Assembly (NCBI GenBank): GCA_964579265.1
Contig: CAZOFO010000003.1
Span: 15,968 to 79,967, forward strand
DNA length: 64,000 nt
Direction of reading: 5' to 3'
From: Candidatus Micrarchaeota archaeon
Lineage (GTDB): Archaea > B1Sed10-29
In this document: positions 12,390-32,894 of the stretch, piece after piece
Numbering within the stretch: the stretch's first letter is position 1
How the letters are laid out: each line of letters starts with the position of its first letter
Program-made: the position numbers and the translations under genes
The notes under the pieces: generated by a model
The model's database searches: none
The model's input: the letters and a program-made list of their open reading frames with translations, nothing else
Told to the model about the DNA's origin: nothing

Positions 12390-12803
12390 CTAGAATAGTT
12401 TTTTTCCTACTCTTTTTATTCTTACTTCTGGGTTTGTTAATCTATCGCATTGTCTTTGAGTTTCTAATTCTATTTCAAAACTAGTTTTGTCGTCTGGTTC
12501 CTGGATGTTTTTTATAGTTTCAAATGTTTCTGCTGGTGGTTTTTCCGGTACTTCTTCTATTATTGCTTTTAGTTCTATCTCTTTTACTTCGTATTCGTAT
12601 TCTATCTCTATTTCACCTGTAAAAGTAACTAGACATCTGTTTTCACCGATTTCTTGTTTTTGGATTGGTTCTAGATGGTGTTCTACGTCTGGGTCTGTTC
12701 TAGCTACTTGTATTAAGTTTGAAATGATAGGGTAGGAGAGTACAATTACTACTGCTATTATTATTAAGGTTATTAATGTTTTGTGGCTGGTTCCTTTTTT
12801 CAT
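12390..12803 (-). CDS. Hypothetical membrane-anchored protein inserted between kae1 and bud32
   Basis: N-terminal TM LITLIIIAVVIVLSYPII, acidic E-rich body, no recognisable domain. Confidence 0.4.
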   Translation of the reverse strand: MKKGTSHKTLITLIIIAVVIVLSYPIISNLIQVARTDPDVEHHLEPIQKQEIGENRCLVTFTGEIEIEYEYEVKEIELKAIIEEVPEKPPAETFETIKNIQEPDDKTSFEIELETQRQCDRLTNPEVRIKRVGKKLF

Positions 12804-30600: not shown

Positions 30601-30708
30601 TGGGGCCAGCGAGATTTTCCTCAAAAGAGTCCTGTGGACTCCTGTTGATCTTGAACTCACGTCACCACCGCCCCGGGGTGGTAGGATGCCAGGCTACCCT
30701 ATGGCCCC
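30601..30708 (-). tRNA. tRNA-Pro (anticodon GGG, tentative) with ~34-nt non-canonical intron in the T-loop region
   Basis: Manual fold on minus strand: acceptor GGGGCCA/TGGCCCC, D-arm GGGT-AGCCTGGC-ATCC, anticodon arm ACCACC-CCGGGGC-GGTGGT (6-bp stem, C33), T-stem GTGAG...CTCGC split by ~34 nt. 108 nt total. Conserved rpoN-tRNAPro position. Confidence 0.55.
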
Positions 30709-30902
30709 ATTCGCGAGTATTTGTTTATTTCATCTATTATGTCTACTTGGGCTGTGAACATTCTTCTACAGCAGTATCTTTCCAATTTTAATTCGTCCAT
30801 TACTTTTTCTGGGTTTTCTCCGTTTTCTATCTTTTCTTTGTATTCTTCCCAGAGGTGTCCTATTGGTTTTCCACAACTGAAGCATCTTACGGGTATCATC
30901 AT
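30699..30902 (-). CDS. rpoN: DNA-directed RNA polymerase subunit N (Rpb10)
   Basis: MIPVRCFSCGKPIGHLWEEY...LERYCCRRM zinc-bundle signature; last 3 codons overlap the tRNA 5' end. Confidence 0.85.
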   Translation of the reverse strand: MMIPVRCFSCGKPIGHLWEEYKEKIENGENPEKVMDELKLERYCCRRMFTAQVDIIDEINKYSRMGP

Positions 30903-30927
30903 TTTTGTTCACCTTTTTTGGGGCACT

Positions 30928-31344
30928 TTATCTGTATGATTTGATTGGTTTTGCTCTTGCTCCTTTTCTCATTGGTTTCTTTGGCTCTTTTCTTCTGTAA
31001 TCATCTACTAGTATTGATCTGTCGTATTCTCTGTATTTTTCTTCCAGTTCTTCTGAGCCACTCCATTCTACTAGTGCTTTCCCTATTGAGGTTCTAGTGG
31101 CTGCTGCTTGTCCTGCTTTTCCTCCGCCTTTCACATTTGTTTTTATTTTTATCTTTTCAAGTTTCTCTTTTCCCAGAATTTTCTCAGCTATTCTTATTGG
31201 TTCTTTTATCATTCTTCTGTATAATTCAGGAGTGTATAAGTCTATTGGTTGATTATTAATTTTTATTGTTCCTTTTCCTTCCTTTATGGTTGTTCTAGCT
31301 ACTGCTTTTTTCTTTTTTCCTTTTTTGAATACATGTTTAGCCAT
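30928..31344 (-). CDS. rps9: 30S ribosomal protein S9 (uS9)
   Basis: GGGKAGQAAATRTSIGKALV and C-terminal ...KPIKSYR. Confidence 0.85.
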   Translation of the reverse strand: MAKHVFKKGKKKKAVARTTIKEGKGTIKINNQPIDLYTPELYRRMIKEPIRIAEKILGKEKLEKIKIKTNVKGGGKAGQAAATRTSIGKALVEWSGSEELEEKYREYDRSILVDDYRRKEPKKPMRKGARAKPIKSYR

Positions 31345-31357
31345 TTTTTCATCCTCT

Positions 31358-31783
31358 TTATTGTTTTAATCCTAATTCTTCACATAGTTCTTTTATTGTG
31401 ATATGTGGTTTATCTTTTTTTATTTTTATATTATCTTCTGATTTTTCTTCTAGTCCTTCTGGAACTCCCAAGTATGCTTTTATTTTTTTCTTAGCCTTTT
31501 TACCTCTTTGTTTTTTCATTGGAAGCATTTTCTCTGTTGCTCTTTTTAGGAATAGATCGGGTCTTCTTGATATTGTTTTTGGACTTTTTCTTGGGTTTCC
31601 TAAGTCTCTTAGATTGAATTTGTCTCTGTATTTTTGCACTATATTCTGTTTTTTTCCCACTATTATTGCTTTTTCAGAGTTTATTATTCTGACTTCTTTT
31701 CCTTTTTGAGCTTCTTCGGATGCTTTTGATGCTATTCTTCCGAGTGGTTTTCCTTCTCCGTTTATTATGTACATTTTGTTCAC
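31358..31783 (-). CDS. rpl13: 50S ribosomal protein L13 (uL13)
   Basis: MYIINGEGKPLGRIASKAS...IINSEKAIIVGKK uL13 N-terminal pattern. Confidence 0.8.
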   Translation of the reverse strand: MNKMYIINGEGKPLGRIASKASEEAQKGKEVRIINSEKAIIVGKKQNIVQKYRDKFNLRDLGNPRKSPKTISRRPDLFLKRATEKMLPMKKQRGKKAKKKIKAYLGVPEGLEEKSEDNIKIKKDKPHITIKELCEELGLKQ

Positions 31784-32148
31784 TTTATTATCTTCATTTT
31801 TTCTTTTGATGGTTTTTTATCTTTCATTTCTTCTATTGTGAAGGCTTTTGATTTTGTTTTGTTTATTTTTTCATTGGCTTTGTTTGAATATGTTAATGCT
31901 GCTATTTCTATTTTTTTATCTTTATTTATTTCTCCGTATCCAAGTACTTTTCCAGGTATTAATATTATTTCTCCGTCTTCCGCTTCTTTGTCTATTTTTC
32001 TTAGGTTTACTTCAGCTCTTTTTCTATTTGGTTTACCTAGTTCTTTTCCTAGGTCTTTCCAAATTCCTTTTTCTTTTTCCAGAGTTCTTATTAGACTTTT
32101 TAGTCTTTTGTTCTGTATTCTGTTTTTCCTTTTACTCATTTTAATCAT
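31780..32148 (-). CDS. rpl18e: 50S ribosomal protein L18e (eL18)
   Basis: Basic N-terminus, ...EVNLRKIDKEAEDGEIILIPGKVLGYGEI matches L18e; position between rpl13 and rpoD is conserved. Confidence 0.75.
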   Translation of the reverse strand: MIKMSKRKNRIQNKRLKSLIRTLEKEKGIWKDLGKELGKPNRKRAEVNLRKIDKEAEDGEIILIPGKVLGYGEINKDKKIEIAALTYSNKANEKINKTKSKAFTIEEMKDKKPSKEKMKIIK

Positions 32149-32166
32149 TTTTTATTGTTGTGGGGA

Positions 32167-32285
32167 TGCGGGGAACGGGATGTTCACCCAAAGAAGCTAA
32201 TAGCTTCTTCTTGGTTTTGAACCCGTGAAGGCACTAAGCCACATGGCCCTCAACCATGCCCTTTTGACCGCTCAGGCATCCCCGC
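32167..32285 (-). tRNA. tRNA-Leu (anticodon GAG) with ~35-nt non-canonical intron at T-loop position 59/60
   Basis: Manual fold: acceptor GCGGGGA/TCCCCGC, D-loop GAGCGGTCAAAA, anticodon arm CATGG-TTGAGGG-CCATG, long variable arm GGC-TTAGT-GCC, T-stem ACGGG...CCCGT interrupted after TTCAAA by a 35-nt hairpin-forming insert. 119 nt. Confidence 0.7.
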
Positions 32286-32894
32286 TTATTCCTGTTCTTC
32301 TATTTTTTCTTGTAGTTCTTCTGCTTTTTCCTTGAGGATTTTTAATGATTGTTCTAGTAGTTCTTCTGGTTCTTTTTTTACGTATGATTCTACAGTGAAT
32401 TTGAATTCGTCTTCTGGATCTTCTTCTGATTCTTTTTCTACATCTGTTTTATAGGTTGCTAGGCAGGGTTTGTGTCTGGCGTGTTCTTTCCCTAATCCGA
32501 GTTCTATTGTTCCTTCTAGCTCTATTTCTTGGTTTTCTTCTAGTTTTATTATTGGTGTTTTTGGGTATATTACTTCTATTTTTGGATCTTCTATTTCCAT
32601 TTGTTCTGCGTGTACTATCCCTGGGTCCTTTGCTGTTAGCGTCATCATTGTTGATGGTGATTCTTCGGTTAATTCGTAGTCTTCTGGGGTGGATATTGGT
32701 GTCATTCCTATTCTGTGTGCTATGTATTCATCGAACATTGGTGATGTATTTTCGAAGAAGCTTACTTTCGTGATTGCTAGGGTAGGTATTTCTCTTTGCA
32801 TTGTTCTCCTTATTGCATTGGCTGTTGGTGGGTTTGAGTCTTTTAGAGTGAATTCTAGCTTTTCTTCTTTTTTTTCTAGGTCTTCTATTTTCAT
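32286..32894 (-). CDS. rpoD: DNA-directed RNA polymerase subunit D (Rpb3 homolog), short form
   Basis: ANAIRRTMQREIPTLAITKVSFFENTSPMFDEYIAHRIGMTPI Rpb3/RpoD dimerisation-domain signature; 202 aa, so lacks an Fe-S domain. Confidence 0.8.
   Translation of the reverse strand: MKIEDLEKKEEKLEFTLKDSNPPTANAIRRTMQREIPTLAITKVSFFENTSPMFDEYIAHRIGMTPISTPEDYELTEESPSTMMTLTAKDPGIVHAEQMEIEDPKIEVIYPKTPIIKLEENQEIELEGTIELGLGKEHARHKPCLATYKTDVEKESEEDPEDEFKFTVESYVKKEPEELLEQSLKILKEKAEELQEKIEEQE

Follow-up and report, generated by a model that had tools for sequence, protein, structure and literature searches.

The window analysed here, a stretch of 64,000 nucleotides, carries on its minus strand a conserved cluster of genes in the order tRNA-Ser(GGA), S13, S4, S11, RpoD, tRNA-Leu, L18e, L13, S9, RpoN, tRNA-Pro, enolase and S2. 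The host is archaeal, as expected for an archaeal bulge-helix-bulge (BHB) tRNA intron, judging from marker genes in the window (CDP-archaeol synthase, archaeosine TGT, Kae1, aIF2-gamma, aIF5B, S3Ae, S6e, L7Ae, L18e, RpoD and RpoN) and from the nearest loci, which belong to DPANN MAGs. The two strands are strongly asymmetric: T makes up 45 % and A 20 % of the plus strand, at an overall GC content of 35 %. Between 9.3 kb and 64 kb almost every gene is located on the minus strand, and the tRNA genes form islands of 60-70 % GC. Between the RIO-type kinase and Kae1 genes there is also a 137-aa ORF (12390-12803, minus strand), for which no Pfam match was obtained at E<=0.001. The gene of interest lies between rpoD and the L18e gene, with the following features:

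32286..32894, minus strand: rpoD (RNA polymerase subunit D; Pfam PF01000 and PF01193), immediately upstream of tRNA-Leu
32167..32285, minus strand: tRNA-Leu(GAG) gene including its intron, 119 nt (sequence, cloverleaf fold and ARAGORN call after in-silico splicing)
32216..32285, minus strand: tRNA-Leu 5' exon, 70 nt, tRNA positions 1-59 including the long variable arm (invariant in five of five copies)
32181..32215, minus strand: tRNA-Leu intron, 35 nt, ACCAAGAAGAAGCTATTAGCTTCTTTGGGTGAACA (59/60 placement by the BHB rule)
32167..32180, minus strand: tRNA-Leu 3' exon, 14 nt, consisting of U60, CCCGU (3' strand of the T-stem), UCCCCGC (3' strand of the acceptor stem) and discriminator A73
Predicted exon junction of tRNA-Leu: ...GGGUUCAAA joined to UCCCGU...
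31780..32148, minus strand: ribosomal protein L18e gene, start codon 18 nt downstream of tRNA-Leu

When positions 32167-32285 are read on the minus strand, they consist of GCGGGGATGCCTGAGCGGTCAAAAGGGCATGGTTGAGGGCCATGTGGCTTAGTGCCTTCACGGGTTCAAA, ACCAAGAAGAAGCTATTAGCTTCTTTGGGTGAACA and TCCCGTTCCCCGCA in succession (119 nt), which can be laid out 5' to 3' as GCGGGGA-UG-CCUG...GGGC-A-UGGUUGAGGGCCAUG-UGGCUUAGUGCCUUC-ACGGG-UUCAAA-[35 nt]-U-CCCGU-UCCCCGC-A. G1 follows immediately after the rpoD stop codon TAA, and CCA is not encoded in the gene. The cloverleaf is complete, with a 7-bp acceptor stem, a D-arm, an anticodon arm (loop UUGAGGG) and a separate variable arm (GGC-UUAGU-GCC); the 5' exon ends in ...ACGGG-UUCAAA, and the T-stem ACGGG/CCCGU encloses TTCAAA, the 35 nt and a T. 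In this form the gene receives no call at all from ARAGORN, whether run with default settings, with -i, with -i0,80 or with a lowered score threshold, and Rfam gives no tRNA match on the region at the gathering threshold or at E<=10, the sole match at E<=10 being a chance match to Chlorobi-1 (E = 8.3). Once the 35 nt following TTCAAA are deleted in silico, the remaining 84 nt are recognized by ARAGORN as tRNA-Leu(gag) with the T-loop TTCAAAT, and removal of the insert thus restores a canonical cloverleaf, as is expected of an archaeal BHB intron. A sequence-only reading of this DNA had described a 119-nt tRNA-Leu(GAG) gene with intact elements, split after T-loop position 59 by a 35-nt insert with its own hairpin, whose removal would leave a canonical TTCAAAT loop and which would be missed by tools that look only at position 37/38; on each of these points it is upheld by the sequence, the folds, the BHB placement and the results of ARAGORN and Rfam.

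The unconstrained fold of the gene (-52.2 kcal/mol, z = -3.55, with 0 of 200 shuffles as stable) is a cloverleaf in which the 35 nt form a hairpin out of the T-loop, apart from the variable-arm hairpin. This also answers the alternative raised in the same reading, that the extra nucleotides might belong to the variable arm: the insert is in the T-arm.

The BHB has been described as a 4-bp helix between two 3-nt bulges, with the first two anticodon bases belonging to the central helix, and the cut rule used here was taken from that description: loop positions 1-4 are helical, and the cut falls after loop position 6 (PMC4090602). In the anticodon arm, the cut comes after loop position 6 (37/38) because the first two anticodon bases lie in the central helix; the T-arm also consists of a 5-bp stem and a 7-nt loop, and the same rule therefore gives a helix at 54-57 and a cut at 59/60, as seen. 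For the BHB fold, the T-stem and the pairing of U54-A57 with UGAA, 3 nt upstream of the 3' T-stem strand, were enforced and the remainder was left free. The result is a strict 3-4-3 hBHBh' motif, with a T-stem of 5 bp, a UUCA/UGAA helix of 4 bp and the bulges AAA and CAU, arranged as follows:

32218..32221, minus strand: 5' strand of the central BHB helix, T-loop U54 U55 C56 A57 (constrained fold)
32183..32186, minus strand: 3' strand of the central BHB helix, intron UGAA (constrained fold)
32215..32217, minus strand: 5' bulge, A58 A59 and A (intron nt 1), with the predicted 5' cut between 32216 and 32215
32180..32182, minus strand: 3' bulge, C A and U60, with the predicted 3' cut between 32181 and 32180
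32187..32214, minus strand: inner helix h' and intron hairpin, CC/GG followed by a 9-bp stem, GAAGAAGCU/AGCUUCUUU, with loop AUU (folds)

Both junctions are located in the 3-nt bulges of the hBHBh', as in archaeal BHB introns, and the cut rule places both cuts between 59 and 60, the position of the 59/60 intron class; because A residues flank the junction, a cut at 58/59 would give an identical mature tRNA-Leu, and the sequence is equally compatible with either placement. The sequence-only reading had paired TGAAC of the intron with GTTCA of the T-loop in what it took to be a relaxed BHB substrate. The pairing of TGAA with U54-A57 and the formation of a BHB both hold, but the C lies in the 3' bulge, G53 is paired to C61, and the constrained folds give a strict rather than a relaxed motif. 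Relative to the MFE structure, the enforced hBHBh' costs +2.4 kcal/mol at 37 C and +0.3 kcal/mol at 80 C, and in the thermodynamic ensemble the central 4-bp helix has a pairing probability of about 10 % at 37 C without protein, which does not count as positive evidence for the motif. Low protein-free pairing of the central helix is usual for BHB motifs. As modelled, the Leu T-loop motif is the canonical geometry of a 37/38 intron, moved onto the T-arm.

Two other kinds of interrupted gene were considered and rejected. Group I and group II introns have a ribozyme core that spans hundreds of nucleotides and contains conserved domains, and a self-splicing intron of this type was rejected as the insert is a simple 35-nt hairpin without an Rfam intron match even at E<=10. 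A split or permuted tRNA gene was rejected as the two exons lie next to each other, in collinear order, within 119 nt.

Orthologous loci were fetched with the RpoD protein as probe and anchor. The nearest reference genomes are two MAGs with 77-79 % RpoD identity, one of which is labelled by its depositor as Candidatus Iainarchaeum archaeon B1Sed10_29 (phylum Iainarchaeota, kingdom Nanobdellati/DPANN), and the next matches are about 78 Micrarchaeota MAGs with 33-42 % identity. In JGI metagenomes, a protein-based search recovered one further close copy, L084, and a DNA-pattern scan of metagenomes with the tRNA-Leu 5' exon returned 0 matches; since the protein-based rescan gave just this one extra close relative, the clade is thinly sampled.

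A tRNA gene follows rpoD in essentially every Micrarchaeota locus examined, and in about 78 of these loci the slot between rpoD and L18e is occupied by tRNA-Leu(GAG). About 40 of these Micrarchaeota genes are intronless (85-92 nt), and about 38 are 98-127 nt long, each with an insert of 12-43 nt which on inspection lies in the anticodon loop, at the canonical site; the T-loops of all of them are intact (GTTCAAATC or GTTCGAATC). The intron-bearing genes (about 38, among loci L006-L083 and L085-L163) are mislabelled by ARAGORN -i as Arg(cct/tct), Phe(gaa) or Ser(gga) because a wrong anticodon is picked inside the intron. The T-loop insert in tRNA-Leu is confined to the window and its close relatives L001, L004, L005 and L084, of which L005 and L084 are identical at tRNA-Leu and may share one source, and the five copies represent three intron alleles (35, 34 and 34 nt). 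Chance is excluded as the cause of the interruption, because the same interrupted gene is present in four more contigs and in a syntenic tRNA-Leu(GAG) slot.

In an alignment of the three distinct tRNA-Leu sequences, 0 of 84 exon columns and 13 of 35 intron columns are variable (Fisher p = 1.9e-8), so that among these three sequences the exons are conserved and the intron sequence is free, as in archaeal BHB introns. All 123 of 123 pair cells of the combined cloverleaf and BHB structure are standard, whereas in slid-register controls pairing drops to 44-54 %. Both partners change in three pairs of the intron hairpin (A-U/G-C/G.U, C-G/U-A/U.G and U-A/C-G/U.G), and the single change in the central helix is from U-A to U.G, in L001, which has UGGA in place of the intron UGAA and keeps the pair as U.G. 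A covariation shuffle control reached 139/500, a test with no power on three distinct rows, and the conclusions on tRNA-Leu lean on the contrast between exons and intron and on the register test of 38 sequences described below, not on this shuffle. The same alignment bears on whether the gene might be a pseudogene, inactivated by insertion of a hairpin, unspliced and non-functional. Such a gene would be rejected by standard tRNA finders, as this one is, but its exons show 100 % identity between lineages that share only 71-90 % identity in the flanking DNA, the insert varies and covaries while keeping the exact 3-4-3 BHB register, and the conserved tRNA-Leu(GAG) slot is occupied by the split gene with no intact copy there; a pseudogene is therefore considered very improbable.

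A second gene with the same type of interruption is located in the gap between RpoN and enolase, where a GC-island scan had flagged positions 30624-30726:

30601..30708, minus strand: tRNA-Pro(GGG), 108 nt, with a T-loop intron at 59/60, RpoN-enolase gap (GC island, fold, ARAGORN after splicing, BHB)
30650-30708, minus strand: tRNA-Pro 5' exon, 59 nt
30615-30649, minus strand: tRNA-Pro T-loop intron, 35 nt, folding as a hairpin
30601-30614, minus strand: tRNA-Pro 3' exon

The unspliced tRNA-Pro gene is missed by Rfam and by ARAGORN in all modes tried, and after in-silico splicing ARAGORN calls it as tRNA-Pro(ggg), 73 nt. Its BHB consists of the T-stem GUGAG/CUCGC, the central helix UUCA/GGAA (3 Watson-Crick pairs and A.G) and the bulges AGA and AAU, and its 5' exon is exactly 59 nt long, in line with a 59/60 cut. 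L001 carries the same tRNA-Pro allele as the window, and L005 and L084 have exons identical to those of the window and a different intron of 34 nt, with a relaxed 5' site in which a 5x3 internal loop stands in place of a clean bulge; as modelled, this relaxed site hints at an endonuclease of broad specificity. The anticodon loop of this tRNA-Pro, CCGGGGC (30670-30676, minus strand), has C33 rather than the near-universal U33, as well as C32 and C38. The loop is identical in L001, L005 and L084, and the Micrarchaeota orthologues have UUGGGGU or similar loops with U33.

The distribution of such genes was surveyed in the window and in all 163 loci with a scanner for T-loop introns, which looks for a T-stem, TTCRA, an insert of 8-120 nt and a matching acceptor stem and validates candidates with ARAGORN after splicing. 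Exactly two T-loop-interrupted genes were found in the window (tRNA-Leu and tRNA-Pro). In about 40 Micrarchaeota loci, the scanner found a tRNA-Pro(GGG or AGG) interrupted at the same site by an insert of 12-32 nt, about 1.7 kb downstream of rpoD (e.g. L008 4836-4922), and it found one tRNA-Arg(TCG) with a 27-nt T-loop insert (L079 248-348). Several of the Micrarchaeota tRNA-Pro genes have the anticodon AGG (A34). The sequence-only reading had called T-loop 59/60 introns rare and lineage-restricted, which is correct for Archaea as a whole but does not apply in this neighbourhood, given a second such gene 1.5 kb away, which that reading had missed, about 40 in Micrarchaeota tRNA-Pro and one in tRNA-Arg.

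Of the 38 distinct sequences of T-arm plus insert, 37 (97 %) have a complete pairing (4/4) of nucleotides 54-57 in the BHB register, compared with 0-3 % of the same 38 sequences in registers shifted by 1-3 nt, the sole exception being the window's own tRNA-Pro (3 Watson-Crick pairs and A.G). This register test is the strongest statistical evidence, drawn from sequence, that the inserts are likely to be endonuclease substrates. It also bears on the proposal that the mature RNA keeps the 35 nt as an enlarged T-loop or variable region, which would make an unusually large tRNA, a proposal to which the MFE fold lends something, in that the stable hairpin of the insert leaves the other arms undisturbed. 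A separate, normal class-II variable arm is already present, however, and retention of the insert would destroy the 7-nt T-loop. A 7-nt T-loop is required for the elbow formed by the D-loop and T-loop. In addition, the 3' end of the insert pairs with nucleotides 54-57 at a fixed distance of 3 nt from the T-stem in 37/38 sequences, which makes sense only as a signal for an endonuclease, and the equivalent 59/60 insert of ARMAN-2 is cleaved in vitro (PMC3239211). Retention of the insert is accordingly regarded as having very little chance of being correct.

The window is a mosaic with respect to its close relatives, being 100 % identical to L001 outside positions ~30,650-32,260 and 100 % identical to L084/L005 inside them. 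The L084/L005-type segment, of about 1.5 kb, covers the tRNA-Leu intron, L18e, L13, S9 and RpoN, and both switch points are located within the identical exons of tRNA-Leu and tRNA-Pro. The Logan contigs L002 and L003 end exactly at tRNA-Leu position 28, which is where a k=31 unitig would stop if two genotypes that share the exon and two upstream A residues co-occur. Because of this break, an assembly chimera of co-occurring genotypes is favoured as the origin of the mosaic, over very recent recombination. Under a related reading, the 1.5-kb mosaic delimited by tRNA exons may be a real recombination event, in which case the invariant tRNA exons would be crossover hotspots between genotypes about 20 % apart.

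The mosaic, with its switch points inside both tRNA genes, and the breaks of the short-read contigs L002 and L003 inside tRNA-Leu might also suggest that the interruption itself is an assembly artefact, produced by a chimeric join or a misassembly within the tRNA. The L001-type, L005/L084-type and L004 sequences, however, each come from their own assemblies and each carry an intron at the same site with a different sequence, and the mosaic alters which allele appears in the window, not whether an intron is present. Of the alternatives to a genuine intron, this one is given the least credence, and it is judged extremely unlikely.

The two T-loop introns of the clade, both 34-35 nt long and alike in architecture, raise the question of a common origin. 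The 59/60 intron of tRNA-Pro is old, being common to about 40 Micrarchaeota loci, whereas that of tRNA-Leu is limited to the clade of the window. The Leu introns are more similar to the clade's Pro introns than are structure-preserving shuffles (z = 1.5-3.4, best p = 0.002), a likeness that is significant against simple shuffles and only suggestive against segment-preserving shuffles. The Leu intron is also closer to the Pro introns of the clade than to any Micrarchaeota T-loop intron of at least 20 nt, a comparison that is confounded by length and composition. On these sequence comparisons, homology of the Leu and Pro introns by copying is suggestive, and the more specific proposal, that the Leu T-loop intron was copied recently from that of the neighbouring tRNA-Pro gene, by transposition or gene conversion between T-arms 1.5 kb apart in one operon, is put forward tentatively, as a possibility on the unlikely side. 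Such copying from Pro to Leu could have been seeded by the shared sequence GTTCAA.

Considering the gene structure, the strict BHB geometry, the conserved register, the invariant exons next to a covarying intron, and the orthology of the locus, it is highly likely that a functional tRNA-Leu(GAG) of a DPANN archaeon is encoded here and that its T-loop is interrupted between positions 59 and 60 by a 35-nt intron of the protein-spliced (BHB) type. The outer helix of the precursor would be the T-stem (49-53/61-65), and the central 4-bp helix would arise from pairing of UUCA (nucleotides 54-57) with a UGAA close to the 3' end of the intron. A58-A59 and the first intron base would form the 5' bulge, the last two intron bases and U60 the 3' bulge, and the remaining intron a hairpin supplying the inner helix, an arrangement that would copy the BHB of the anticodon arm (stem 27-31/39-43, helix 32-35, cut 37/38) onto the T-arm. 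In each bulge, the archaeal splicing endonuclease EndA would then cleave behind the second base, and the exons would be joined by an RtcB-type ligase into an 84-nt tRNA with the consensus T-loop UUCAAAU; since no CCA is encoded in the gene, it would be added after the exons are joined. As nucleotides 54-57 are sequestered in the modelled precursor and the elbow between the D-loop and T-loop cannot form, splicing probably precedes the elbow-dependent steps of maturation.

Cleavage and ligation of the tRNA-Leu intron in vivo are proposed by analogy, EndA cleavage being argued from that of the ARMAN-2 59/60 intron (PMC3239211). It has been described that alpha4 and alpha2 endonucleases require a strict 3-4-3 motif (PMC3239211), which the Leu intron has. 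Genes for EndA and RtcB were not found within the 64-kb window (Pfam on 40 ORFs, with no tRNA_int_endo domain, and a probe search), and phmmer and tblastn with an approximate M. jannaschii EndA query gave nothing convincing, the best match being inside the archaeosine TGT. Diverse EndA architectures have been reported in DPANN archaea, and gaps in the tRNA sets of new DPANN genomes have been taken as a sign that disrupted genes go undetected (Kaneta et al. 2018, PMC5829648). Of the five tRNA genes in the window, two (Leu-GAG and Pro-GGG) are seen by neither ARAGORN nor Rfam, and genomes of this lineage would therefore seem to be without essential tRNAs, leading to wrong inferences on completeness and codon usage. 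The finding leaves the known mechanism of splicing unchanged; what it adds is the presence of T-loop 59/60 introns outside Micrarchaeum, in an Iainarchaeum-labelled lineage and in a new host tRNA, a site at which the canonical 37/38 geometry is reproduced exactly, and an orthologous tRNA-Leu series that offers natural material for the study of intron gain and loss.

T-loop introns at 59/60 are already known from related archaea. In ARMAN-2 (Candidatus Micrarchaeum acidiphilum), as published in 2011, pre-tRNA-Cys(GCA) has an intron at 59/60 and pre-tRNA-Pro(GGG) has introns at 53/54 and 59/60, and the epsilon2 EndA of this organism cleaves the 59/60 intron in vitro (Fujishima et al. 2011, PMC3239211); 59/60 is also among the known non-canonical tRNA intron positions listed in a review (PMC4090602). 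The case described here is like ARMAN-2 in that the host is a DPANN archaeon and the intron is located at 59/60, builds its BHB on the T-stem and is missed by standard predictors; the ARMAN-2 Pro case is a strict hBHBh', as is tRNA-Leu here, and the tRNA-Pro(GGG) of the window shares its 59/60 site. It is unlike ARMAN-2 in its host tRNA, Leu(GAG), which is intronless or carries a 37/38 intron in all of the ~78 Micrarchaeota orthologues examined, in the length of the intron (35 nt, as opposed to 13 nt in ARMAN-2 Cys), in having a single intron rather than the two adjacent introns of ARMAN-2 Pro, and in its lineage, that of Iainarchaeum-labelled MAGs with about 40 % RpoD identity to Micrarchaeota. 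While the enzyme of ARMAN-2 is known by experiment to be an epsilon2 EndA, the system described here is known from the sequence of its tRNA genes. A literature search found no paper specifically on tRNA introns in Iainarchaeota or Diapherotrites.

The motif is also identical in geometry to the canonical 37/38 hBHBh' intron, as far as this is summarized in the review (Marck and Grosjean 2003, in PMC4090602), in its 5-bp outer stem, its helix at loop positions 1-4, its 3-nt bulges, its cut after loop position 6 and the use of the intron hairpin as inner helix; it differs in its site on the T-arm, where the precursor sequesters U54-A57, which take part in the elbow, and not the anticodon. Non-canonical BHB introns, including those at 59/60, are likewise found in Thermoproteales and other Crenarchaeota, to the extent covered in the same review (Sugahara et al. 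2008; Fujishima et al. 2010, in PMC4090602), where similar introns in different tRNAs have suggested intron transposition, and a weaker hint of the same kind is given here by the Leu and Pro introns. These lineages have (alpha-beta)2 endonucleases, often relaxed HBh'/hBH motifs and many intron positions per genome, whereas the Leu motif described here is strict and both introns found occupy one position. A further comparison is with the rpoD-linked tRNA-Leu(GAG) genes of Micrarchaeota, which have the same identity, occupy the same slot and in many cases bear introns, but in which every intron (12-43 nt) is found in the anticodon loop and the T-loop is intact. What is new in the present case is the host tRNA, Leu-GAG, the lineage, and an orthologous series in which the same gene has no intron, a 37/38 intron or a 59/60 intron.
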